Positions 2,097-56,298 of a DNA stretch of 64,000 nucleotides are shown here, piece after piece; position 1 is the first letter of the stretch; each line of letters begins with the position of its first letter. Source of the DNA: Bacteroidales bacterium (lineage in GTDB: Bacteria; Bacteroidota; Bacteroidia; Bacteroidales; VadinHA17); assembly GCA_025358645.1 (NCBI GenBank), contig JANYIW010000100.1, forward strand, positions 2,938 to 66,937, in the 5' to 3' direction. The translations under genes and the position numbers were made by a program. The notes beneath the pieces are model-generated. The model made no database searches and was not told where the DNA came from. It saw only the letters and a list, made by a program, of their open reading frames with translations.

Positions 2097-3260
2097 TTAT
2101 TTAAGAATTTCAGCCAGTTTGATCTGCAATTGTTCACCTCTGAGGTTTGATGCAATAATATGGCCTTCTTTATCAAGGAGAAAATTACGAGGTATTGATT
2201 CGACTTTATAGAGCGGAACAACTATTGAGTTCCAGTATTTAACATCACTTACATGTATCCATTTCTCAAGATGATCATCCTGAATACCTTTCACCCACGA
2301 CTCTTTGGTTTTGTCAAGCGATACCTGGTAAATCTGAAATCCTTTTTTATGATAAATATTATAAACGTTTACCAGGTTTGGATTTTCTTTTCTACATGGT
2401 GCACACCATGATGCCCAGAAATCCAACAGAACTACCGATCCCCTGGTTGAAGAGAGTTTAATTGTATCTCCTGCAGGAGTAGGCAGGGATATCTCAGGAG
2501 CCACATTTCCGGAACCTGATTCAGGAGCTGCTGTAGTTCCACCATTCATTTTTGTAGAAAGTGCCTTCACCTGTTCATGAAGTGTTATGACTGGCTCATA
2601 ATCGGGGTAAAGCTTAAACATTGATGAATCGACCTTTATAAAATATTTCAAATCTTTAGCAGGATTCAGTACATACGCGCTTGGTGCGACTTGCTGATAG
2701 AGTGCAACGAGGCTGACAAGTGATGTGAGGTTATCATCAATGTATTTTTTAGTATACGTATTAATTTCGCTAAGGTAAATCTGCGCCAGGCTGTCGAGAG
2801 ATTCAATCACTTTGGGTAACTCAGGCTTATCTGCATTCTGCATATAGATTTTGTTTAATCCTGTCAGTTTTTTTACAGTAATACGGAGTGTTTTATTATA
2901 TTCAACCATTAATTCGGTGCCCTTTGATCCCTCCAGCGATATCGGATAATTCAATGAATCGCTATTCACTTTCATACTGATCTTCTCACCGGGCTTAACT
3001 AGCAGGGTCAGAAAGTTATTATTATTATTTTTCAGGAGATAAAAAGACGGTTGTTTGATTTCTCTCTTGAAATTAAATTTACCATCAGTAGAAACCATGA
3101 TTGAATCAATAGGTTTCAGTTCATTCGATTTCAGTTCGTCAAGAACTATGTAGGCGCCAATTACAGGATTCACAATTGTTCCCGAAATTCTTACACTATT
3201 ATTTTTACAGCCGGTAGATACCAATACAATAAACAGGTAGAGAAAAAGCTTCTTATTCAT
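2097..3260 (-). CDS. TlpA/ResA-like thiol:disulfide oxidoreductase lipoprotein
   Basis: 387 aa with a lipobox (LVSTGC) and an intact redox motif FWASWCAPCRKENP. Same architecture as the 901-2061 paralog. Confidence 0.8.
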   Translation of the reverse strand: MNKKLFLYLFIVLVSTGCKNNSVRISGTIVNPVIGAYIVLDELKSNELKPIDSIMVSTDGKFNFKREIKQPSFYLLKNNNNNFLTLLVKPGEKISMKVNSDSLNYPISLEGSKGTELMVEYNKTLRITVKKLTGLNKIYMQNADKPELPKVIESLDSLAQIYLSEINTYTKKYIDDNLTSLVSLVALYQQVAPSAYVLNPAKDLKYFIKVDSSMFKLYPDYEPVITLHEQVKALSTKMNGGTTAAPESGSGNVAPEISLPTPAGDTIKLSSTRGSVVLLDFWASWCAPCRKENPNLVNVYNIYHKKGFQIYQVSLDKTKESWVKGIQDDHLEKWIHVSDVKYWNSIVVPLYKVESIPRNFLLDKEGHIIASNLRGEQLQIKLAEILK

Positions 3261-3442: not shown

Positions 3443-5392
3443 ATGAGTTACATCAAGTTCGATAAGAGCCAGGTGGTAAACCTAGAATATTCACTTGGAA
3501 GGGAGATGATCAGAACAAACAGAGCAGGGTCTTATTCTTCAACTACCCTTGTTGGATGTAATACACGCAAATATCATGGATTGCTAATTTGTCCTATAGA
3601 TGAGTTTGGAGGTGAAAGATTTGTACTTTTATCTTCACTCGATGTAACAGTGGTTAATAAAGATAAAAGTTTTAATATTGGTATTAGAAAATATAAAGGA
3701 GATTATTTTAGTCCAAAAGGTCATAAATATGTTGAGGACTATGATGTTGATAACATTCCTTCGAGGACTTACAGGGTTGGTGGTGTAATTCTTAAACAAG
3801 AAAGAATGTTGGTTCATTATGAGGAGCAACTGCTTATTAAGTATACGATCCTTGAAGCATCGGAACCTATGAAATTGCAGTTCCGCCCATTTCTTGCTTT
3901 CCGGAATATTCATCAGTTGACTCATGCCAACCTGTCTGCAAATCCTAAGGTTGATTACATAGAAAATGGCATCGAATCAAAGATGTATGACGGATTTCCT
4001 TCGTTAAAAATGCAGTTTTCCACAAATGTTGAATTTATTCCTGTCCCCGATTGGTATCTCGGAGTCGAATATCTGGAAGAACAAAAACGGGGGTATGATT
4101 ATTCAGAAGACCTGTTTACTCCGGGTTTTTTTGAGCTTAAAGCCCAAAAGGGAGATATTATTATTTTTTCTGCTTCAACGAAAGAAGAAAAGACCTCAGG
4201 ACTTAATCAGAAATTTACAAAGACTGTTACAGGTAAAATTCCAAGAGATAGTTTTATTAATTGTTTAAGAAATGCTGCCCAGCAATTTGTTGAAAAACGA
4301 GGAGGGAAAACTCTTATTATAGCAGGATATCCGTGGTTTGGAGCATGGGGAAGGGATACATTTATTTCACTTCCGGGACTGGCTTTAGCACGACACGGAC
4401 TGGTACTTTACAGAGAGGTTCTGGATACGCAGGTTAATAATATGAAGGATGGATTATTTCCAAATATGGATAATGCAACCAACCCGGCATTTAATTCAAT
4501 TGATGCGCCACTTTGGTTTTTCTGGGCTGTACAACAATATATTGAACATGGCGGCGCCGATGGATGGGAAAGATATGGTACAGCAGCTAAATCAGTACTG
4601 AATGCCTTTAAAAATGGTACTGATTTTAATATTCACATGAGAGACAATGGTCTGATTTATGCCGATGCTCCCGGGAAAGCTCTTACCTGGATGGATGCTG
4701 TAGTATTTGGTATTCCTGTAACGCCACGAAGGGGTTATGCCGTGGAGATAAATGCTCTCTGGTATAATGCCATAAGCTTTTCTCTGGAGATGGCAGCAAA
4801 AGAAAATGATAAAAAGTTTACAAAGGAATATGAAATGTTGCCAGACCTGATTAAGAAATCATTCCTCGAGATATTCTGGGATGATAAACTTGGCTACCTG
4901 GCTGATTATGTTAACGATGATGAAGGTAAAAATCTTTTTATCAGACCTAACATGGTGATTGCTGTTTCGCTGCCATATTCAATGCTTGATAAGGACCAGA
5001 TGAAAACGGTATTGGATGTTGCAGACAGAGACCTTGTCACAACCAGAGGATTAAGAACCCTCTCACCGAGTAATGCATTGTACCATGGTATATGTATTGG
5101 GAATCAGGAAGAAAGGGATAATGCATATCATCAGGGAACAGTCTGGCCCTGGCTCTACGGCCCCTTCTGTGAAGGATGGTTGAAAGTTTATGGTCAGCAA
5201 GGTGTACAGAAAGTAAAAAAATTGATTTATGGGCTTGAAGCGGTAATGAGTGAACATGGGATAAGTACTATATCTGAGATTTACGATGGTGATCCTCCTC
5301 ATTCACCCCAGGGCGCAATTTCTCAAGCCTGGAGCGTTGGTGAGGTTCTCAGGATAATCAACTTACTTGAAACAAAATTTGCAAATCAATAA
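3443..5392 (+). CDS. Glycogen debranching enzyme (amylo-alpha-1,6-glucosidase family)
   Basis: Start moved to the first ATG (MSYIKFDKSQVVNLEY...). GDE-type blocks: NTRKYHGLL, GYPWFGAWGRDTFISLPG, AYHQGTVWPW. Located in a glycogen gene cluster. Confidence 0.85.
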   Translation: MSYIKFDKSQVVNLEYSLGREMIRTNRAGSYSSTTLVGCNTRKYHGLLICPIDEFGGERFVLLSSLDVTVVNKDKSFNIGIRKYKGDYFSPKGHKYVEDYDVDNIPSRTYRVGGVILKQERMLVHYEEQLLIKYTILEASEPMKLQFRPFLAFRNIHQLTHANLSANPKVDYIENGIESKMYDGFPSLKMQFSTNVEFIPVPDWYLGVEYLEEQKRGYDYSEDLFTPGFFELKAQKGDIIIFSASTKEEKTSGLNQKFTKTVTGKIPRDSFINCLRNAAQQFVEKRGGKTLIIAGYPWFGAWGRDTFISLPGLALARHGLVLYREVLDTQVNNMKDGLFPNMDNATNPAFNSIDAPLWFFWAVQQYIEHGGADGWERYGTAAKSVLNAFKNGTDFNIHMRDNGLIYADAPGKALTWMDAVVFGIPVTPRRGYAVEINALWYNAISFSLEMAAKENDKKFTKEYEMLPDLIKKSFLEIFWDDKLGYLADYVNDDEGKNLFIRPNMVIAVSLPYSMLDKDQMKTVLDVADRDLVTTRGLRTLSPSNALYHGICIGNQEERDNAYHQGTVWPWLYGPFCEGWLKVYGQQGVQKVKKLIYGLEAVMSEHGISTISEIYDGDPPHSPQGAISQAWSVGEVLRIINLLETKFANQ

Positions 5393-17487: not shown

Positions 17488-17625
17488 TTTTACCTCTATC
17501 CCGATAGCTATCGGGACCCCTAAAGCCTGCCTGCCGCCTGCCTGCCGGTAGGCAGGGTAGGCAGGGGGACTTTTGTAAATCTTTGATTTTTAGCTTTTTC
17601 CCTTTAGGGATAAGGGTAAAAAAAA
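17488..17625. repeat. GC-rich nested palindromic intergenic element, copy A (core duplicated)
   Basis: Contains the perfect 18-bp palindrome TCCCGATAGCTATCGGGA (17499-17516). The 40-nt core CCTGCCTGCCgCCTGCCTGCC/GGTAGGCAGGGTAGGCAGG (17526-17565) has arms that pair with G.U wobbles. Inverted arms are TTTTACCTCTATCCC (left) and GGGATAAGGGTAAAA (right). Related to the copies at 43505-43580 and 46277-46307. Confidence 0.75.
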
Positions 17626-24490: not shown

Positions 24491-25015
24491 TTATTTGCTT
24501 TTCGCTGTTTTCTTTGCAGCAGGCTTTTTCACAGCCGGTTTCTTTTCTGCAACTTTTTTTACTGTTTTCTTTACAGGAGCTTCTTTTTTCGCAGCAACGG
24601 GTTTCTTAGCAGCTTTCTTTCCCTTTGTGGTTTCTTCATCCACAGTGGTACCAGCTACTTTAGATTCTGCCTTTTTCGTTACAGCTTTTTTTGGTGAACT
24701 TTTACCGTTTATGCTTATGATTTCAACTTCAGTGAAGTTCTGACGGTGCCCGTTTTTAACTCTGTAACCTTTTTTTCTTTTTTTCTTGAAAACAATTACC
24801 TTATCACCTCTAACCTGATTGTCGAGAATCTTTCCTCCGATAACAGCGTCTTTAATTGTAGGTTCTCCGATGGTTATTTTACCTTCATCCTCTATTAAAA
24901 GTACCTTGTCAAATTCGACTTCTTTTCCCTCTTCAAATTCCAGCCTGTGAACAAAAATCTTCTTGCCGTGCTCAACTTTAAACTGCTGACCTGCAATTTC
25001 TACGATTGCGTACAT
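24491..25015 (-). CDS. rplU: 50S ribosomal protein L21 with a ~70-aa Lys/Ala/Pro-rich C-terminal extension
   Basis: 174 aa. The N-terminal ~103 aa are canonical L21 (MYAIVEIAGQQFKV...). The tail is KKAAKKPVAAKKEAPVKKTVKKVAEKKPAVKKPAAKKTAKSK. Confidence 0.9.
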   Translation of the reverse strand: MYAIVEIAGQQFKVEHGKKIFVHRLEFEEGKEVEFDKVLLIEDEGKITIGEPTIKDAVIGGKILDNQVRGDKVIVFKKKRKKGYRVKNGHRQNFTEVEIISINGKSSPKKAVTKKAESKVAGTTVDEETTKGKKAAKKPVAAKKEAPVKKTVKKVAEKKPAVKKPAAKKTAKSK

Positions 25016-42500: not shown

Positions 42501-42802
42501 AGTTCTGTTCCACAATTGAGAGCTGTCTGCCCCCCAAACGATAGAAGAATACCATCAGGTCTTTCAATGGCAATCACCTTTTCAACAAAATACGGAGTAA
42601 CCGGAAGGAAATAGATCTTGTCAGCCAGCTCTTCAGATGTCTGAACTGTTGCAATATTGGGATTTATCAGAACAGTACTGACATCTTCTTCTTTTAATGC
42701 TTTCAAAGCCTGGGAGCCTGAGTAATCAAACTCACCTGCTTCCCCGATTTTCAATGCTCCTGACCCCAGGATTAAAACCTTCTTTACTACATTTTTCATC
42801 AT
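39578..42802 (-). CDS. carB: Carbamoyl-phosphate synthase large subunit
   Basis: 1074 aa with GSGALKIGEAGEFDYSG, duplicated ATP-grasp halves and a C-terminal MGS-like domain. Confidence 0.97.
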   Translation of the reverse strand: MMKNVVKKVLILGSGALKIGEAGEFDYSGSQALKALKEEDVSTVLINPNIATVQTSEELADKIYFLPVTPYFVEKVIAIERPDGILLSFGGQTALNCGTELYKTGVFEKYSVKVLGTPVTAIMNTEDRELFVKKLDEIDVKTPSSIAALGVNEAIEAADKLGYPVIIRAAYTLGGQGSGFASNSDELRTLASKAFSYSNQILVESSLKGWKEVEYEVVRDKYDNCITVCNMENFDPLGIHTGESIVVAPSQTLTNSEYHKLRELSIRIIRHIGIVGECNVQYALAPDSEDYRVIEVNARLSRSSALASKATGYPLAFIAAKLAMGYGLHELKNSVTKNTTACFEPALDYIVCKIPRWDLNKFEGVSHLIGSSMKSVGEVMAIGRTFEEVIQKGLRMIGQGMHGFTGNRNLGFEDIEKELAEPTDMRIFSIAEALEIGMSVDRIYELTKIDKWFLFKLRNIISIKDELSQYHTLESIPTDLLSHSKINGFSDFQIARHVLKSGADQINNDLMLVRNYRKSLGIVPYIKQIDTLAAEYPAITNYLYLTYSGSEHDIICETDKKSVIVLGSGAYRIGSSVEFDWCSVNAIDTIKKEGFRSVMINYNPETVSTDYDICDRLYFDELTFERVLDIIELENPGGVIVSVGGQIPNNLAMRLYNEKVPVLGTSPLSIDRAENRHKFSEMLDILKVDQPRWKELSTIDDIFEFVDRIGFPVLIRPSYVLSGAAMNVVSNKNELSHYLKLASQVSKQYPVVVSEFIENAKEIELDAVARDGEMIAYAISEHVEFAGVHSGDATMVFPAQKIYFETARRLKRISRQIAKELNISGPFNIQFLAKDNDIKVIECNLRASRSMPFVSKVLKTNLIELATKVMLGVPVEKPGKTVFDIDYVGVKAPQFSFSRLAKADPVLGVDMSSTGEVGCIGEGFYEAILKAMFSVGYRVPKKSILLSTGPARSKVELLNSAKALREKGHKLYATRGTQQFLKNAGVEAHVAYWPDENKSPNTIDLIKSREVDLVVNIPKDLSDKELNNDYTIRRSAVDYNVPLITNARLASAFILAFCKMSIDDLAIKSWDKYK

Positions 42803-42816
42803 CCGGATTTGAGGTT

Positions 42817-42824
42817 CAAAAATA
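42817..42824 (-). promoter_or_regulatory. -7 promoter box for carB
   Basis: Minus strand reads TATTTTTG, ending 14 nt before the carB ATG. Confidence 0.35.
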
Positions 42825-42862
42825 ATATAATTTTTTAATTTGGCTTGGTGTTAATGAAAAAA

Positions 42863-42897
42863 TGAATATATTTGCAAAATAAATGCATAAATATGCA
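42863..42897. promoter_or_regulatory. Pair of ARG-box-like imperfect palindromes (putative ArgR operator)
   Basis: TGAATATATTTGCA (42863-42876) and TGCATAAATATGCA (42884-42897) start 21 bp apart. Box 1 overlaps the argR -7 box and box 2 overlaps the argR ATG. They lie in the carB/argR divergent region. Confidence 0.45.
42867..42874 (+). promoter_or_regulatory. -7 promoter box for argR
   Basis: TATATTTG ends 18 nt before ATG 42893 and is embedded in ARG-like box 1. Confidence 0.4.
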
Positions 42898-43375
42898 AAA
42901 AACAAAAAGACTTTTGGCAATAGAGAAAATTATTTCTGATGAAAATATATCAATTCAGGAAGAATTACTTAAAAAACTGAAAGGGAAAGGGATTAGTTGT
43001 ACTCAGGCTACGCTATCCCGCAATTTAAGGCAGTTAGGTGTTGGACGAATACCTGACGGTACGGGAGGGTACAAGTATTCTTTATCTGAAAATATCAGAA
43101 ATTCGGAAAAAACTTCACTCAAACTGAATATTGTACCAGTTATACGGGATTTAGTTGAAGCAAAAGGACTTATGGTAATTAAAACTATTCCCGGAAATGC
43201 AAGTAACACAGCCTTTTTTATTGATGGTGCAGGAAGATTTGAAATAGCAGGGACAATAGCTGGTGACGACACGATTCTGGTAATTCCCAGAGACGGAGTT
43301 ACTATCCCGCAGGTTCATACCTGTCTGGAGATTATTTTACCAGGGATACATGAGCAGATTAAAAGTAAGAAGTAA
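42893..43375 (+). CDS. argR: Arginine repressor ArgR
   Basis: First ATG is 42893 (the track uses TTG 42872). wHTH block SCTQATLSRNLRQLG and C-terminal block AGTIAGDDTILVIP. Confidence 0.9.
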   Translation: MQKTKRLLAIEKIISDENISIQEELLKKLKGKGISCTQATLSRNLRQLGVGRIPDGTGGYKYSLSENIRNSEKTSLKLNIVPVIRDLVEAKGLMVIKTIPGNASNTAFFIDGAGRFEIAGTIAGDDTILVIPRDGVTIPQVHTCLEIILPGIHEQIKSKK

Positions 43376-43485
43376 GAAGTAGGAAGTGTGAGGTGTGAGG
43401 TATGAGGTATGAGGTTGAGGTGTGAGGTATGAGGTATGAGGTATGAGGTGTGAGGGGTGAGGTGAAGTAAGAAGATAAAAGTAAA
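43363..43485 (+). repeat. Tandem heptanucleotide array (~18 units, A[A/G]GT[A/G][A/T]G)
   Basis: The units read AAGTAAG x2, AAGTAGG, AAGTGTG, AGGTGTG, AGGTATG x2, AGGTTG, AGGTGTG, AGGTATG x3, AGGTGTG, AGGGGTG, AGGTG, AAGTAAG, AAGATAA, AAGTAAA. The plus strand has no cytosine from 43356 to 43487. The first units encode the last argR codons and its stop. Confidence 0.9.
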
Positions 43486-43504
43486 ATCGGAACGCAGCCG
43501 GAGA

Positions 43505-43580
43505 TCCCGCTTAGGCGGGAAGACGAAAAAGCCCCCCCTGCCTACCGGCAGGCAGGCATTTGGGGGGTTGAGGGGTAAAA
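43505..43580. repeat. GC-rich nested palindromic element, copy B (single core)
   Basis: Hairpin TCCCGC-ttag-GCGGGA (43505-43520). Then GCCCCCC + core CCTGCCTACCGGCAGGCAGG (43537-43556) + CATTTGGGGGGTTGAGGGGTAAAA. The core is the exact reverse complement of the central 20 nt of copy A. Confidence 0.75.
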
Positions 43581-43615
43581 TTCAAAATGTAAATACTAAA
43601 TAAAACATTAAAACA

Positions 43616-44848
43616 ATGAAAGAAAAAGTCGTTTTGGCATATAGTGGAGGTTTGGATACTTCAGTGATACTTAAATGGTTAATAGATAAGAATTATGAAG
43701 TCATTGCTTTTATAGCTGATGTGGGTCAGGCCGAAAATTTTGACGAATGCAGAAAAAAAGCGCTATTGCTTGGAGCTTCAAAAGTGATTATAGCCGACCT
43801 GAAAAGGGAATTTGTTGACGGTTATGTGCTTAAAGCCATAATGGCCAACGCAATATATGAAGACAGGTACCTGCTTGGCACAGCACTGGCAAGACCGCTT
43901 ATTGCAAAAAAGCAGATCGAAGTTGCAAAAGCTGAAGGAGCCAACGCGGTTGCACATGGCGCCACGGGTAAAGGCAATGATCAGGTGAGATTCGAATTAT
44001 GTTATTATGCGCTGATGCCCGGAGTTAAAGTTATTTCCCCGTGGAAAGATAAAGAGTTCCTGGCAACATTTAAAGGAAGAACAGATCTTCTGAAGTATGC
44101 AACTGAAAAAAAGATCCCGGTGAAAGCAAGCATCGATAAGCCTTACAGTGAGGATGATAACCTCATGCATATCAGCCATGAAGCCGGAGTTCTGGAAGAC
44201 CCGATGTATACTCTGCATAAGAGCATGCTGGAAAAGATGGTAATGCCACAGGATGCACCCGATAAAGAAACCCGGATAGTCATTCACTTTAAGAACGGGA
44301 TACCTGTTAAGCTTGTCAACAAAGAGGATGGAACAGTGAAGGAAGATTCTTATGATATGTTTGTTTATCTGAATGAACTTGCAGGCAAAAACGGTATCGG
44401 CCTCCTGGATATGGTGGAGAACCGCTTCGTAGGGATAAAATCGAGAGGTGTGTATGAGACTCCTGCTGCAACAGTTTTACATATTGCTCATAAGGATATC
44501 GAAGGAATAGCTATGGACAGAGAGGTAATGCGACTTGTAAACATGCTTACCCCAAAATTTGCCGAGATTATCTATAATGGTTTCTGGTTCAGTCCTGAAA
44601 TGGATTTTCTTATGGCCGCTATAGAAAAGAGTCAGGAGCTTATTGATGGCAGCGTTCATCTCTGTCTTTATAAAGGGAATGTTCTCATAGAAGGTCGTGA
44701 ATCACCATCTTCACTTTATAATAAAAAACTTTCAAGCATGGATATTGAGGGTGGATTTGATCAGACTGACAGTAAAGGATTCATAAGGATTAATGCAATC
44801 AGACTCATGGCTCACAGAGCTATAGTCGAAGCTAGTCAGAAAAAATGA
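43616..44848 (+). CDS. argG: Argininosuccinate synthase
   Basis: 410 aa with the blocks AYSGGLDTS and [13 protein letters not shown]. Confidence 0.97.
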
Positions 44849-44903: not shown

Positions 44904-46247
44904 ATGAAACTCTGGGAAAAAGGGATTAATCCCGAACCTGCAATCATCGAATTTACAGCAGGGAAAGACAGAAAAACCGATCTGGCTCTCACAAAATGGG
45001 ATATAATCGGTTCAATGGCTCATGTGATAATGCTGGAAAACGTTGGATTGATTTCAGAGGATGAAAAGAATGGATTGTTAAAAGCCCTTCATTCTTTATT
45101 TGTATGGGATGAGGAGGGTAGCCTCGTTATTGAAAAAGATGTTGAGGATATCCATTCACAGATTGAAAAGGAGATGTCGTCAATACTCGGTACGACAGGT
45201 AAAAAAATTCACACCGGACGATCAAGAAACGATCAGGTACTGGTCGATATTCGTCTCTATACGAGGGAGGAGATAGACAAGCTTTCGGTTCTGATCCGGA
45301 GGTTGTTTACAAAGTTACAATCTTTGAGCGAACAACATAAAGCAGTGCTTGTACCGGGTTATACTCATATGCAGCCTGCAATGGTCTCGTCGTTTGGCTT
45401 GTGGTTCGGAGCTTATGCGGAATGTCTGGCAGATGATGTTCTTCTTCTTTCAGGAGCGCGGGCCCTTAATAATCAGAATCCTCTGGGGACAGCTGCAGGG
45501 TATGGAACCACATTACCAATAAACAGGAAACTGACATCGGAGCTACTTGAATTTGATGATCTTCTCTACAACTCAGCTTATGCAAGCCTGAGCAGGGGCA
45601 AAATTGAAATGGCAATTGGCTCAGCTCTTGCTTCTGTGGCACAGACTCTTTCACGGTTTTCTATGGATATCTGTCTATACATGACTTCCGAATTCAGATT
45701 CATTGATTTCCCTGATGAATATATTACAGGCTCAAGTATAATGCCCCAGAAAAGAAACCCCGATGTTTTCGAACTGATAAGAGCCAGGTCCAATGTCCTT
45801 CTATCCCTGCCAAACCAGATAGCCATCCTGACATCAAACCTTCCTTCAGGATACAACAGAGATCTTCAACTTCTTAAACAGCTGATATTTGATGCGTTCG
45901 GAGAGTTGAGGGAGTGTATTGAAATAATGCTTTTAATGCTTAATAATATTATAATAAAGAAGAACATAACGGAGAATCCATTATACAACACTATTTTCAG
46001 CACTGAAGAGGTAAACAGGTTGGTTAAACAGGGAATCCCCTTCAGAGATGCGTACAAAGCGGTATCTGAAATGGTGAAAAATTCTACATTTTCAAAGACA
46101 TCATTGTCAGATTATGTTCACGAAGGAAGTATAGGTAATCTTTGTAATAAAGAGATAGCCGAAATTTTTGAGAAGAGGATGGAAAGCTTTAAAAACAGAA
46201 CAGCATCTGAACTGGCAGATAAGATGATGATGCATGTGACTAAGTGA
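44904..46247 (+). CDS. argH: Argininosuccinate lyase
   Basis: 447 aa with the fumarate-lyase signature GSSIMPQKRNPD. Confidence 0.95.
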   Translation: MKLWEKGINPEPAIIEFTAGKDRKTDLALTKWDIIGSMAHVIMLENVGLISEDEKNGLLKALHSLFVWDEEGSLVIEKDVEDIHSQIEKEMSSILGTTGKKIHTGRSRNDQVLVDIRLYTREEIDKLSVLIRRLFTKLQSLSEQHKAVLVPGYTHMQPAMVSSFGLWFGAYAECLADDVLLLSGARALNNQNPLGTAAGYGTTLPINRKLTSELLEFDDLLYNSAYASLSRGKIEMAIGSALASVAQTLSRFSMDICLYMTSEFRFIDFPDEYITGSSIMPQKRNPDVFELIRARSNVLLSLPNQIAILTSNLPSGYNRDLQLLKQLIFDAFGELRECIEIMLLMLNNIIIKKNITENPLYNTIFSTEEVNRLVKQGIPFRDAYKAVSEMVKNSTFSKTSLSDYVHEGSIGNLCNKEIAEIFEKRMESFKNRTASELADKMMMHVTK

Positions 46248-46276: not shown

Positions 46277-46307
46277 GCCCCCCATTTGGGGGGTTGGGGG
46301 GTAAAAA
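46277..46307. repeat. GC-rich element, copy C (core-less)
   Basis: GCCCCCC-ATTT-GGGGGGTTGGGGGGTAAAAA. It is colinear with copy B except that the 20-nt palindromic core is missing. It lies between the convergent argH and carA genes. Confidence 0.7.
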
Positions 46308-46327
46308 TTAAGGGAGAAGAAAGGTAA

Positions 46328-52904: not shown

Positions 52905-53696
52905 ATGGAACAAAGGAGAAGAGTTTATCCCAAAAAAAACCTTGGACAACACTTTCTGAAAGATAAAACGATTGCCCGAAAAATTGCGGACTCACTTACA
53001 GGTGTAGGGTACAGTACTGTCCTTGAGATTGGTCCGGGGATGGGAATACTCACAGAATACCTTATGGAAAGAAGATTTACCGATTTCCATGTTATTGAAA
53101 TTGATAATGAATCAGTTCATTTTCTTAAAGCAAACTTTCCTGAATTGAATAATGTGATCACCGGAGATTTCCTTTCAATGGATCTTGATCAGCATTTTCC
53201 TGAAAAGATGGGAATAATAGGTAATTTTCCCTATAATATTTCAACACAGATAATGTTTAAGGTATTGAAATACAGGGAAAAGGTAGTTGAGATTGCAGGA
53301 ATGTTGCAGAAGGAAGTTGCCGAGAGGATTTGTGCCGGACCCGGATCAAGAACTTATGGTATTTTGAGCGTACTTCTTCAGGCCTTTTATAAAACGGAGT
53401 ATCTATTTACGGTTTCGGAGAATGTTTTTTCACCTCCGCCAAAAGTAAAATCGGGAGTAATCAGATTAATACGAAACGATGTTAAGAACCTCGATTGTGA
53501 CGAGGTATTGTTTTTCAGAGTAGTGAAGGCCTGCTTTAATCAGCGTAGGAAAACATTAAGGAATTCAGTAAGAGCTGCATTTGAATTGAAACGGGACGAT
53601 TACCACGAATTCGGATTACGTCCCGAGCAACTTTCTGTTGATCAGTTTGTTCAGCTTACCAGATGGATAGATGAGAATAGGATAAAATCAGAATGA
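52905..53696 (+). CDS. rsmA: 16S rRNA (adenine1518/1519-N6)-dimethyltransferase
   Basis: First ATG is 52905 (the track uses GTG 52854). Blocks: KKNLGQHFL, VLEIGPGMGILT, GNFPYNIST. Confidence 0.9.
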   Translation: MEQRRRVYPKKNLGQHFLKDKTIARKIADSLTGVGYSTVLEIGPGMGILTEYLMERRFTDFHVIEIDNESVHFLKANFPELNNVITGDFLSMDLDQHFPEKMGIIGNFPYNISTQIMFKVLKYREKVVEIAGMLQKEVAERICAGPGSRTYGILSVLLQAFYKTEYLFTVSENVFSPPPKVKSGVIRLIRNDVKNLDCDEVLFFRVVKACFNQRRKTLRNSVRAAFELKRDDYHEFGLRPEQLSVDQFVQLTRWIDENRIKSE

Positions 53697-54935
53697 GAAG
53701 CCTATAGCTTCAACAGGATCCATTTTTGAAGCTGCATTTGCCGGGGCATAACCTGCTATAACACCTATTATTCCGGAGATGAATACTGCAAGAAAGATAT
53801 TGCCAACAGTGAGATACATATTCAGATCCCAGAGATAATTTATGACCAGCGTACCAATAAATATCATAAATACACCGAGTAATCCACCTAAAATCGATAG
53901 CAGCATGGATTCTACCAAAAATTGCTGAAGTATAAAAAATCTCTTTGCTCCAAGCGCTTTCTGGATACCAATAATATTGGTACGTTCTTTTACTGAAACA
54001 AACATAATATTTGCAATCCCAAAACCACCGACAAGAATTGAAAATCCTCCGATAATCCAGCCTCCTATGTTTATTGCGACAAAAATAGAATCTAATCCCT
54101 GTGATATCATACTAGCCCTATTTACCGAAAAATCTGAAGTTTCTTCCGGACGAAGACTCCTGGCAGCTCTCAATATCATTGTGGTTTCATCACTTAATTC
54201 CTGAATAGCAACGCCTGGTTTTGCTTTTATCATTAATTGTGACTCGATGAACCTGTTGCGCATATTGATAAAACTTTTTCCAAAGTTTATGGGTACAAGC
54301 GTTAATTCATCCAGCCCATTATCGCTGATACCTCCTTTTCCTTCCTTCTTTAAAACACCTATAACTGTGGTTTTAAATCCTGCGATACTTATTTCTTTGC
54401 CAACAGGCTCTGTTTTCTCAAATAATTTTCTGGCAATTTCTGATCCGATTATTGCAACATTTTTTCCTGAAGAAGCTTCGAAGGGAGAAAAATACCTGCC
54501 TTTGGCAATTTCAAATGACCTGATATTCTGAAACTCAAGGGTTATTGCTGCAACATTTACATCGCTTGTAATATTTTTCTTGTATTTTATCTTTTCAGGT
54601 TGAAAAGCCACAAAACAGGCTGTTTCGGATTTGGTCGATTTTTTTAAAATTGACTGGTAATCACGGTCCGAGATTGCAGGCCACTTAATGATATCCCACC
54701 ATGCAAGATTAGGATCAAATGACCAGGGGAATTTCTGAACATATATTACATTATCACCAAGTGACGAAATGCTGTCGCGTATCGATTTTTCCATCCAGTC
54801 GAGTACTGTAAAGACTGAAATAATCGAAAAGATCCCTATTGTAATGCCGAAAAGTGAGAGAAAAGTCCTTAACTTATTAACAATAACAGAGTTAATGGCG
54901 AATAGGAAGCCCTCTTTAAAAAGCCTGAAAAACAT
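53688..54935 (-). CDS. MacB/FtsX-type ABC transporter permease (paralog 1)
   Basis: Start moved to ATG 54935 (MFFRLFKEG...), which matches the paralog. NKLRTFLSLFGITIGIFSIIS (TM1), a periplasmic domain, then ERTNIIGIQKALGAKRFFILQQFLVES (FtsX domain). Confidence 0.8.
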   Translation of the reverse strand: MFFRLFKEGFLFAINSVIVNKLRTFLSLFGITIGIFSIISVFTVLDWMEKSIRDSISSLGDNVIYVQKFPWSFDPNLAWWDIIKWPAISDRDYQSILKKSTKSETACFVAFQPEKIKYKKNITSDVNVAAITLEFQNIRSFEIAKGRYFSPFEASSGKNVAIIGSEIARKLFEKTEPVGKEISIAGFKTTVIGVLKKEGKGGISDNGLDELTLVPINFGKSFINMRNRFIESQLMIKAKPGVAIQELSDETTMILRAARSLRPEETSDFSVNRASMISQGLDSIFVAINIGGWIIGGFSILVGGFGIANIMFVSVKERTNIIGIQKALGAKRFFILQQFLVESMLLSILGGLLGVFMIFIGTLVINYLWDLNMYLTVGNIFLAVFISGIIGVIAGYAPANAASKMDPVEAIGFSF

Positions 54936-54970
54936 GCTATAGTTTTTTATCAATTTTATTTTTCGAAAAG

Positions 54971-55050: not shown

Positions 55051-56298
55051 TCAGAAAGAGAAGCCTATAGCTTCAACTGGGTTCATTTTAGCAGCAGTAT
55101 TTGCAGGAGCATAACCGGCCACCACACCTATCATTCCTGAAATGAATATTGCAAGAAGCATATTAGATAAAGTCAGGTACATATTCAGTTCATAGAGGTA
55201 ATTTATAACAAGAGTGCCAATAAATATCATTAAAACTCCGAGCATTCCGCCGATAACAGAAAGTAGTACCGACTCAACAAGGAATTGTTGAAGTATAAAG
55301 AATTTTTTGGCACCAAGAGCTTTCTGAATACCTATGATATTTGTTCTTTCCCTGACAGAGACAAACATAATATTAGCTATTCCGAAGCCGCCGACTAGAA
55401 TCGCAAATCCGCCTATAACCCACCCTCCGATATTTATTCCGGCAAAAACTCCGCTGAAACTCTGAGTGATCAGGCTGGCCCTGTTCATTGAGAAGTTGTC
55501 GGTCTGATTCGGACTCAGCCTTCTTGCAGATCTTATTATCATTGTGGCTTCATCGCTTAGCTCCTGAATGGGAACGCCTTCCTTAGCCTTGATCATCAAT
55601 GTGGCATTCAGGAAATTATTTTTCATGTTTATGAATGTCTTGCCAAAGTTATAGGGAACTACAGTTTCCTCATCCATACCTGTATCACCTATTCCTCCTT
55701 TTCCTTCCTTTTTAAAAACACCGATAACCGCTGTTCTTTTACCTGCTATAGTTATTAGTTTTCCAACAGGATCAGCCTTCTTAAACAATCTCTCTGCGAT
55801 TACTGCCCCTATTATTGCAACGTTTTTTCCAGACTCTGCCTCTTCAGGAGAAAAGTAGCGTCCGTTTTCAACCTCAAAAGATCTGATCTTATCAAATTCA
55901 GGTGTAACAGCCCATACATCTACATCACTTGCCAGATTCTTCTGGTATTTTATCTTTTCAGGCTGAGTTACAGTGAAACATGCGTTTGAAGCTTTTGTTG
56001 ATCTGCCCAGAACTGCCTGATAATCGTATTTCGAGATAGAAGGATATTTGATTATATCCCACCAGTTGAGATTGGTATTTAAGCCCCATGGCCATTTACT
56101 GGCATAGATGACATTATCACCAAGAGAAGAAATTGAATCATGTATTGCCTTCTCCATCCAGTCGAGTACAGTGAAGACTGAAATAATTGAAAAAATCCCT
56201 ATTGTAATTCCGAAAAGTGAGAGAAAGGTCCTTAACTTATTAACAATAACTGATTTATAGGCAAAAATAAAACCCTCTCTAAGAAGCCTGAAAAACAT
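55051..56298 (-). CDS. MacB/FtsX-type ABC transporter permease (paralog 2)
   Basis: 415 aa with the same architecture as paralog 1. TM1 and the FtsX region are near-identical to paralog 1. Confidence 0.8.
   Translation of the reverse strand: MFFRLLREGFIFAYKSVIVNKLRTFLSLFGITIGIFSIISVFTVLDWMEKAIHDSISSLGDNVIYASKWPWGLNTNLNWWDIIKYPSISKYDYQAVLGRSTKASNACFTVTQPEKIKYQKNLASDVDVWAVTPEFDKIRSFEVENGRYFSPEEAESGKNVAIIGAVIAERLFKKADPVGKLITIAGKRTAVIGVFKKEGKGGIGDTGMDEETVVPYNFGKTFINMKNNFLNATLMIKAKEGVPIQELSDEATMIIRSARRLSPNQTDNFSMNRASLITQSFSGVFAGINIGGWVIGGFAILVGGFGIANIMFVSVRERTNIIGIQKALGAKKFFILQQFLVESVLLSVIGGMLGVLMIFIGTLVINYLYELNMYLTLSNMLLAIFISGMIGVVAGYAPANTAAKMNPVEAIGFSF

Follow-up and report, generated by a model that had tools for sequence, protein, structure and literature searches.

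Of all long simple-sequence repeats, those with a 7-nt unit are the most frequent in most prokaryote genomes, and their origin has been put down to polymerase slippage (Mrazek 2007, as quoted in PMC4679880); repeats with units not divisible by 3 in length are mostly non-coding (Mrazek, Guo and Shah 2007, quoted in the same article). The G-rich heptamers of Xanthomonas (GGGAATC) and Nostoc (GGGGAYT) lie on the sense strand between co-directional ORFs, at most 50 bp from a stop codon (Rehm et al. 2015, PMC4692102). They comprise 2–26 units, vary in length and sequence between close relatives, are for the most part transcribed and occur also inside operons, as in pecE-pecF (PMC4692102). Intergenic heptamers of another type, TAACTGA, are known in Beggiatoaceae, Cyanobacteria and some Bacteroidetes, mostly a few nucleotides upstream of start codons; some Bacteroidetes have long arrays while close relatives have shorter, repeat-free spacers (MacGregor 2015, PMC4679880). 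Periodic triplets can also be protein-binding sites. In the hut terminator of Bacillus subtilis, HutP recognizes XAG triplets at 7-nt intervals (U498/U505/U512) and needs two sites of three triplets, which flank the terminator stem, with a linker of 12–17 nt (PMC2425495). The TRAP site of the Bacillus trp leader consists of 9–11 (G/U)AG triplets, and the 11-triplet site overlaps the antiterminator (PMC3064811).

The array described here lies between argR and argG in a 64-kb stretch of DNA, hereafter the window. The window comes from an uncultured Bacteroidales bacterium that has permafrost, fen and peat MAGs as its closest relatives. The features of the region are listed in Table 1. Read in register, the array consists of 18 head-to-tail units, AAGTAAG-type at the edges and AGGTRTG in the centre: units 1–8 are AAGTAAG, AAGTAAG, AAGTAGG, AAGTGTG, AGGTGTG, AGGTATG (twice) and AGGTTG (6 nt), and units 9–18 are AGGTGTG, AGGTATG (three times), AGGTGTG, AGGGGTG, AGGTG (5 nt), AAGTAAG, AAGATAA and AAGTAAA. 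Twelve of the 18 match A[AG]GT[AG][AT]G exactly, and the 7-nt register is broken twice, by the 6-nt and the 5-nt units. Tandem Repeats Finder (TRF) returned a period of 7 at 43363–43387 (AAGTAAG, 3.6 copies) and at 43386–43464 (GTGTGAG, 11.4 copies) and, at a higher order, periods of 27 and 34 nt. The centre of the array is thus homogeneous in its units and the edges are degenerate. The plus strand has no C over 132 nt, the next-longest C-free run of the window being 64 nt, and about 2.6e-8 runs of that length are expected per 64 kb from base composition. However, this is not an independent feature, because the composition of the repeated unit dictates the absence of C. A scan of the whole window with the two-unit pattern GAGGTRTGAGGTRTG (up to two mismatches) gave eight matches versus 0.21 expected, all of them within the array, and no other heptamer array. 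At its 5' end the array runs into argR: the codons AAA AGT AAG AAG TAA (43361–43375) specify K-S-K-K-stop, so that only the first two units overlap the gene and the rest is intergenic. The array supplies stops in all three forward frames, which the 5' edge units already close, and ends 129 nt before the ATG of argG, with two hairpins between. What the first-pass annotation had described, a C-free 132-nt stretch of about 18 tandem heptamers with distinct edge and centre units, the first of which give the last ArgR residues and the stop codon, was correct on every point.

Table 1. Features of the argR-argG region (positions in the window)
Feature	Position	Strand	Basis or remark
ARG-box-like operator pair, 21-nt tandem AATGAATATATTTGCAAAA / AATGCATAAATATGCAAAA, in the divergent promoter region of carB and argR	42861..42900	+	TRF, period 21
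argR, arginine repressor, 160 aa; last five codons are the first array units	42893..43375	+	Pfam PF01316 and PF02863
C-free tract holding the whole heptamer array	43356..43487	+	longest C-free run of the window
5' edge units AAGTAAG, AAGTAAG, AAGTAGG; ancestral A-rich type, common to relatives	43363..43383	+	TRF, unit reading, relatives
Lineage-specific core, 12 units of AGGTRTG type (GAGGTRT when the register is shifted), four-unit higher-order pattern	43384..43464	+	TRF; absent from all relatives examined
3' edge units AAGTAAG, AAGATAA, AAGTAAA; ancestral type	43465..43485	+	L003 and L006 have similar AAGTAAA units ahead of their GC hairpin
GC hairpin 1, TCCCGC-TTAG-GCGGGA, no U tract	43505..43520	+	in both MFE and centroid folds
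Repeated GC hairpin element GCCCCCCC...GGGGGG TTGAGGGG, with nested palindrome TGCCTACCGGCAGGCAGGC (43539–43557) inserted in the loop	43531..43585	+	fold; hairpin at 43531–43567
argG, argininosuccinate synthase, downstream cistron	43616..44848	+	Pfam PF00764 and PF20979
argH, argininosuccinate lyase, third cistron	44904..46247	+	Pfam PF00206 and PF14698

Pfam also confirmed carB and carA in the window, both on the minus strand. TAnnTTTG boxes were found at 42867 (plus strand) and 42817 (minus strand); the former, the only plus-strand box of the region, is the -7 box of argR (TATATTTG, 42867–42874). The ARG-box-like pair, which provides the window's only two matches to this operator, overlaps the -7 box, and the 21-nt tandem is kept upstream of argR in most of 80 relatives. 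Between argR and argG the motif scan found neither an ARG box nor a TAnnTTTG box, in agreement with the first-pass annotation as to the latter, and the sigma-70 scan found promoter-like matches only at chance level. Since the spacer has neither promoter box nor ARG box, the array is probably carried by an argR-argG-argH transcript, and the three genes probably form one ArgR-controlled operon. The arrangement in other genomes is consistent with this: in more distant relatives, 7–30 nt separate argR from argG or the two genes share 4 nt, and the spacer has a median length of 131 nt in the near clade (ArgR identity of at least 80%) versus 32 nt where ArgR identity falls below 76%. The array had been proposed to be transcribed in the leader of argG-argH. 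Transcription appears right, judging from the boxes lying solely upstream of argR and from the short gaps in distant relatives; the array is more probably an intercistronic spacer than a leader.

On its own the array RNA is predicted to be nearly unstructured (MFE of -1.2 kcal/mol over 132 nt). No G-quadruplex was predicted in it by ViennaRNA with quadruplex energies; the units have GG only, with a single GGGG. The two GC hairpins reported between array and argG were both recovered. The intrinsic-terminator scan found no terminator-like site, both hairpins being without U tract, and the predicted fold of the whole spacer is no better than that of shuffled sequences (z = 0.18). The Rfam search over 42700–43800 (E up to 10) gave no match on the array and only sub-threshold minus-strand matches on the GC hairpin, such as sbrA (27.8 bits versus a gathering score of 45). 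Further copies of the GC hairpin element are present at 46283–46311 and 17536–17562, and relatives carry a simple form of it, without the nested palindrome.

The comparison with close relatives is what bears most directly on the nature of the array. Ten contigs match the window at about 95.8% identity across 5.4 kb of flanking sequence and encode an ArgR 98% identical to its own (3 of 160 residues differ); the window ArgR is likewise 98% identical to P0001. In these contigs the homology is interrupted exactly over positions 43380–43556 of the window. Their argR-argG spacers are 89, 91, 106, 113 or 205 nt long and carry from two to eight A-rich units (AAGTAAR, AAATAAG, AAGGCAA); the stop-codon AAGTAAG units, the GC hairpin and the argG leader are retained, and the GAGGTRT unit is absent from all ten. 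Two of the spacers, those of L004 and L008, are exactly one 7-nt unit apart (113 versus 106 nt), and one spacer type contains an unrelated 115-nt insert. A protein-binding platform of periodic NAG triplets, the reading favoured by the first-pass annotation, thus fails the comparison with relatives that the annotation itself had put forward, GAGGTRT being absent at about 96% identity of the flanks. As for nearer strains, neither the exact ArgR of the window (with either of its two possible starts) nor the exact ArgH is on record. The exact ArgG led to two Logan contigs, 99.9% identical to the window and the only near-identical ones found; both start within the palindromic hairpin, 65 nt before argG and downstream of the array.

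The survey was widened to 80 species-level Bacteroidales genomes. In 13 of them three or more heptamers stand at the stop codon of argR or directly past it, with 3–17 copies, the maximum being an AAAAGTA array in L034. Depending on the species the unit is AAAAGTA, AAAAGAC, AAAGTTN, GTAGKMA or GCTCAGR; GAGGTRT units occur in none of the 80 loci. Nearly all the period-7 arrays present in the 421 kb of surveyed loci fall at the argR stop site. They tend to accompany a proto-repeat around the stop codon of argR, AAAAGTAAAAAGTAA (K-S-K-K-stop): six of the seven genomes with the strict proto-repeat have an array, versus 7 of the 73 without it (Fisher 3.7e-5, not corrected for phylogeny), and those in which ArgR ends with Q-I-K-K-K-stop have none. 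Across genomes down to about 79% ArgR identity, one or another C-poor array with a period of 7 persists at the argR stop. Such persistence could hint at selection, for instance for a spacer free of structure; it is accounted for, without any function, by the array being re-seeded continually from the proto-repeat, which is conserved as coding sequence.

From the above comparisons, we concluded that the array is very probably a heptanucleotide simple-sequence repeat generated by replication slippage and unequal duplication, and not a dedicated regulatory element. The 7-nt copies are far above chance, their number and sequence vary between close relatives, and their location is non-coding, as is the case for slippage repeats. 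The following course of events would account for the present sequence. The last argR codons and the stop codon (AAAAGTAAGAAGTAA, K-S-K-K-stop) amount to two copies of a heptamer; selection on the protein would keep this proto-repeat in place, where it would seed tandem expansion just past the argR stop. At the stage of the clade, this would have produced A-rich AAAAGTA/AAGTAAG arrays of variable length. In the lineage of the window, a few A-to-G and A-to-T changes would then have created AGGTRTG units, which may have expanded in the centre, partly as four-unit blocks, leaving the older AAGTAAG units at both edges. Because the seed would be under protein-level selection, the microsatellite would persist across species. 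Both slippage as the generating process and near-neutrality are read from sequence comparison. The effect of the array on argG expression is, on this basis, most likely small or nil; the spacer appears to be under little constraint, and GC-hairpin and other inserted repeats accumulate there too. A plain simple-sequence repeat that changes the promoter-to-gene distance had been offered as the alternative to a binding site. Its repeat part fits, with unit variation and a single-unit polymorphism; its promoter part does not, the spacer being without promoter.

The core unit is not restricted to this locus. A metagenome scan with the three-unit pattern GAGGTRTGAGGTRTGAGGTRTG found GAGGTRT arrays in at least 120 unrelated contigs, with a GC content ranging from 0.27 to 0.68. 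Among the matches listed, many adjoin other heptamer arrays, and none of the contigs encodes argR or argG. One of them, L194, with (GAGGTAT)x18 near carB, was considered as a possible counterpart of the locus in a distant relative and rejected: its carB product is 41% identical, argR is missing and the array precedes carB by about 670 nt, a context different from that of the window. The metagenome arrays at first seemed to show a 2:1 bias towards the sense strand of their neighbours. This was an artefact, due to spurious ORFs on the stop-free complementary strand, and it disappeared once the arrays were masked: among the matches listed, 51 upstream neighbours were then sense and 40 antisense (p = 0.29). 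In 31 of the 51 arrays with a sense ORF upstream (matches listed), the stop codon of that ORF lies at the array edge, which is expected since the repeat closes all three frames.

Variation in unit number raises the question of a contingency locus, in which slippage would tune argG and argH through spacer length, mRNA stability or cistron coupling and so generate heritable, reversible variants. Near-identical strains do differ in unit number, once by exactly one, the array is inside a probable operon transcript, and other bacteria are known to have repeats that alter expression from within a 5' untranslated region (examples in PMC4679880). However, the array has none of the positions that define a phase-variable locus: it is neither in frame within a coding region, nor between promoter elements, nor beside a start codon, the one of argG being 129 nt away. 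The spacer in which it lies can accommodate further sequences, namely a 115-nt insert and other inserted repeats, which speaks for low constraint. To our knowledge, arginine biosynthesis is no typical target of phase variation. All in all, this account of the array is unlikely.

Selection might also act on the composition of the spacer rather than on the number of units. Rho prefers C-rich, G-poor RNA; a C-free, G/A-rich tract unable to load it would avert premature termination, or the array might serve as a three-frame stop or insulator after argR. The 132 nt without C, the stops in three frames and the recurrence of C-poor heptamer arrays at this site in 13 of the 80 species are all in line with such a role, and so, at face value, is the abutment of 31 of 51 GAGGTRT arrays (matches listed) to the stop of the sense ORF upstream. 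This last point carries little information, any repeat with stops in all frames being expected to behave in that way. Moreover, spacers of equal length are devoid of any array in many relatives, the units of others may contain C (AAAAGAC, AAGGCAA, GCTCAGR, GGCAACC), and the remainder of the spacer is made up of C-rich hairpins. We regard a selected unstructured spacer as distinctly improbable. The broader idea that the GAG-N4 array, or more loosely the C-poor heptamer arrays found past the argR stop in this Bacteroidales clade, are a selected RNA element of the argR-argG-argH transcript, be it a multivalent platform for a single-strand RNA-binding protein or a Rho-refractory spacer, would require that unit turnover reflect a need for periodicity and composition and not for an exact sequence; we give it slightly less credit again.

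The reading put forward by the first-pass annotation was a HutP- or TRAP-like platform of NAG triplets. In its most explicit form, an oligomeric RNA-binding protein would dock on the transcribed GAG triplets, one every 7 nt as for HutP, and control read-through of the hairpins into argG-argH. At least 11 GAG triplets separated by 4-nt spacers are indeed present in an unstructured, C-free RNA, and the order of regulator gene, array, GC hairpins and enzyme genes resembles hutP-terminator-hutH; HutP sites, too, have an XAG triplet every 7 nt and come after the stop codon of a regulatory gene that opens the operon (PMC2425495). A docking platform is nevertheless very unlikely, because strains about 96% identical in the flanks lack the central units. 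Other observations go in the same direction: units vary freely and differ between species, the register is broken twice, and GAGGTRT arrays elsewhere show no preference for the sense strand. The site architecture is also wrong, the array being wholly upstream of hairpins devoid of U tract whereas HutP sites flank a terminator stem. Finally, a Pfam scan of 20 ORFs of the window gave no match to the HutP or TRAP families, neither of which the first-pass annotation had seen in the window; the small and mid-size ORFs scanned matched ordinary families only (HIT, L27, L21, GreA, GNAT, DHFR). That the repeat was mis-assembled from short reads, in length or content, is extremely unlikely: short-read contigs of the same strain do break in the spacer, and the searches gave no independent contig across the array, but the breaks are at the palindromic GC element and not in the array, the variant units come in a non-trivial order between edges that match those of relatives, and comparable arrays are present in long-read-style MAG contigs, for example the 17-unit one of L034.

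Taken as a slippage-generated microsatellite, the array has little import for arginine regulation and is best treated as a hypervariable marker instead of a control element. Periodicity alone should therefore not lead to such arrays being flagged as candidate attenuators in first-pass scans. The argR-argG spacer, with its array and GC-hairpin insertions, could be a useful strain-typing locus for peat and permafrost Bacteroidales; for the same two reasons, the array and the neighbouring GC-hairpin insertions, short-read assemblies break there. The locus also offers what appears to be a clear natural example of a microsatellite born from a coding proto-repeat (K-S-K-K-stop), then mutated and re-expanded with a new unit.

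How does the array compare with the systems presented at the outset? TRAP is a Bacillota protein, and its triplets are separated by spacers of 2–3 nt. Many (G/U)AG triplets in a row, on an mRNA upstream of biosynthetic genes, are common to its site and to the array; the spacers are of 4 nt here, which is not TRAP spacing. The resemblance to HutP sites is closer, with a GAG every 7 nt over 43390–43464 (save for the two register breaks), 4-nt spacers and a position after the stop of a regulatory gene, near a GC-rich stem. Unlike HutP sites, the array forms one block that precedes the two non-terminator hairpins, with no XAG cluster after them, and the triplets are not conserved, neither the ten near-identical contigs nor the 80 species-level loci having GAGGTRT. 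With the TAACTGA repeats the array shares its intergenic heptamer organization and the stops in the forward frames; it differs in its unit and in starting within a stop codon and ending 129 nt before the next start. The G-rich heptamers of Xanthomonas and Nostoc are similar in having a 7-nt unit and the G-rich strand as sense strand; here, as there, the array starts at a stop codon, that of argR, and the flanking genes, argR and argG, are co-directional. Unlike them, it has GG and not GGG or GGGG tracts in its units (one GGGG excepted) and lacks the four or more G3+ tracts from which a quadruplex could fold, its host is a member of the Bacteroidales and there is one array in 64 kb. To conclude, it appears that the array does not differ in any essential way from the long simple-sequence repeats of prokaryotes: it is a new instance of them, in an uncultured lineage, with the seed visible in the coding sequence.

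The GAGGTGT/GAGGTAT arrays are not confined to the argR-argG spacer: at least 120 unrelated metagenome contigs (L093-L212), with GC contents of 0.27 to 0.68, carry them too, in lengths from 3 units to over 30, and their neighbours there are often other heptamer arrays. Among the matches listed, 51 arrays have a sense ORF upstream, and 31 of these begin at its stop codon; the metagenome contig matches listed display no overall strand bias. The low-GC peat contig L096 carries several heptamer arrays (GAGGTGT, AAAAGAC/AAAAGTC and CAGCCTT), one of which, AAAAGWC, extends over ~340 nt and is readable as a K/S/Q-rich ORF. Some genomes of these habitats appear to have many loci with abundant heptamer repeats.

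Other repeated elements occupy the spacers of the operon. In some strains that share an identical ArgR (five contigs), the heptamer array is interrupted by a 115-nt insert containing GGATTGCTTCGTCGCAAGCTCCTCGCAATGAC. Since this short inverted repeat is also present between argR and argG in other species (loci L018, L046 and L050), the insert resembles a REP-like or small mobile element. The argR-argG and argG-argH spacers of several species also contain, as insertions, paired blocks of ~10-nt repeats, three to four copies of CCTTTGTGAA followed by three to four inverted copies of CACAAAGGAA, which form a long imperfect palindrome. The argG-argH spacer of one relative, L043, has a GTGAGGAGTGAGGT array and an array of 6.8 copies of ACGAAGAG; short G-rich repeats therefore also emerge in the following spacer of the same operon.

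A GC hairpin element (GCCCCCC-ATTT-GGGGGG-TT-GGGGGG) is repeated in the window. Two copies have a second palindrome nested in the loop as an insertion, either TGCCTACCGGCAGGCAGGC or a GCCTGCC repeat related to it, and similar palindromes are present in the spacers of loci L032 and L042. At the corresponding site, relatives have the simple form of the element. Short-read contigs from the same strain break within it.

Positions of the repeats, operators and other features (window coordinates unless a contig or locus, L, is named)
Feature	Position	Context
GC hairpin element	43531-43585, 46283-46311, 17525-17566	
Two ARG-box-like operators, 21-nt tandem	42861-42900	carB-argR divergent region
115-nt insert	about 2985-3100 (L003, L007, L009, L010, L012)	within heptamer array
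CCTTTGTGAA/CACAAAGGAA paired blocks	about 4300-4500 (argG-argH)	spacers of L014, L015, L020, L032, L034, L035, L041
GTGAGGAGTGAGGT and ACGAAGAG arrays	4264-4354 (L043)	argG-argH spacer
Heptamer arrays	534-878, 1860-2100 (L096)	
L21 gene	24491-25015	
31-nt repeat, copies 57 nt apart	24499-24586	L21 C-terminal extension
Tandem paralogues	53688-54953, 55051-56298	minus strand

In the window, ribosomal protein L21 (174 aa, the Pfam domain covering residues 1-102) has a C-terminal extension encoded in part by a duplicated segment, and two adjacent ORFs (421 and 415 aa) are paralogues with a DNA identity of about 74-77% over the 300-nt stretches compared.

As to the control of the operon, the argR -7 box (TATATTTG) is overlapped by the pair of ARG-box-like operators, and in the majority of the 80 related genomes of Bacteroidales this tandem likewise precedes argR. 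ArgR therefore looks autoregulatory, acting on argR and probably also on argG-argH and carB. Several more distant relatives (loci L039, L051, L063 and L084) have a 4-nt overlap between the stop of argR and the start of argG, which suggests a translational coupling that would have been lost in the long-spacer clade.
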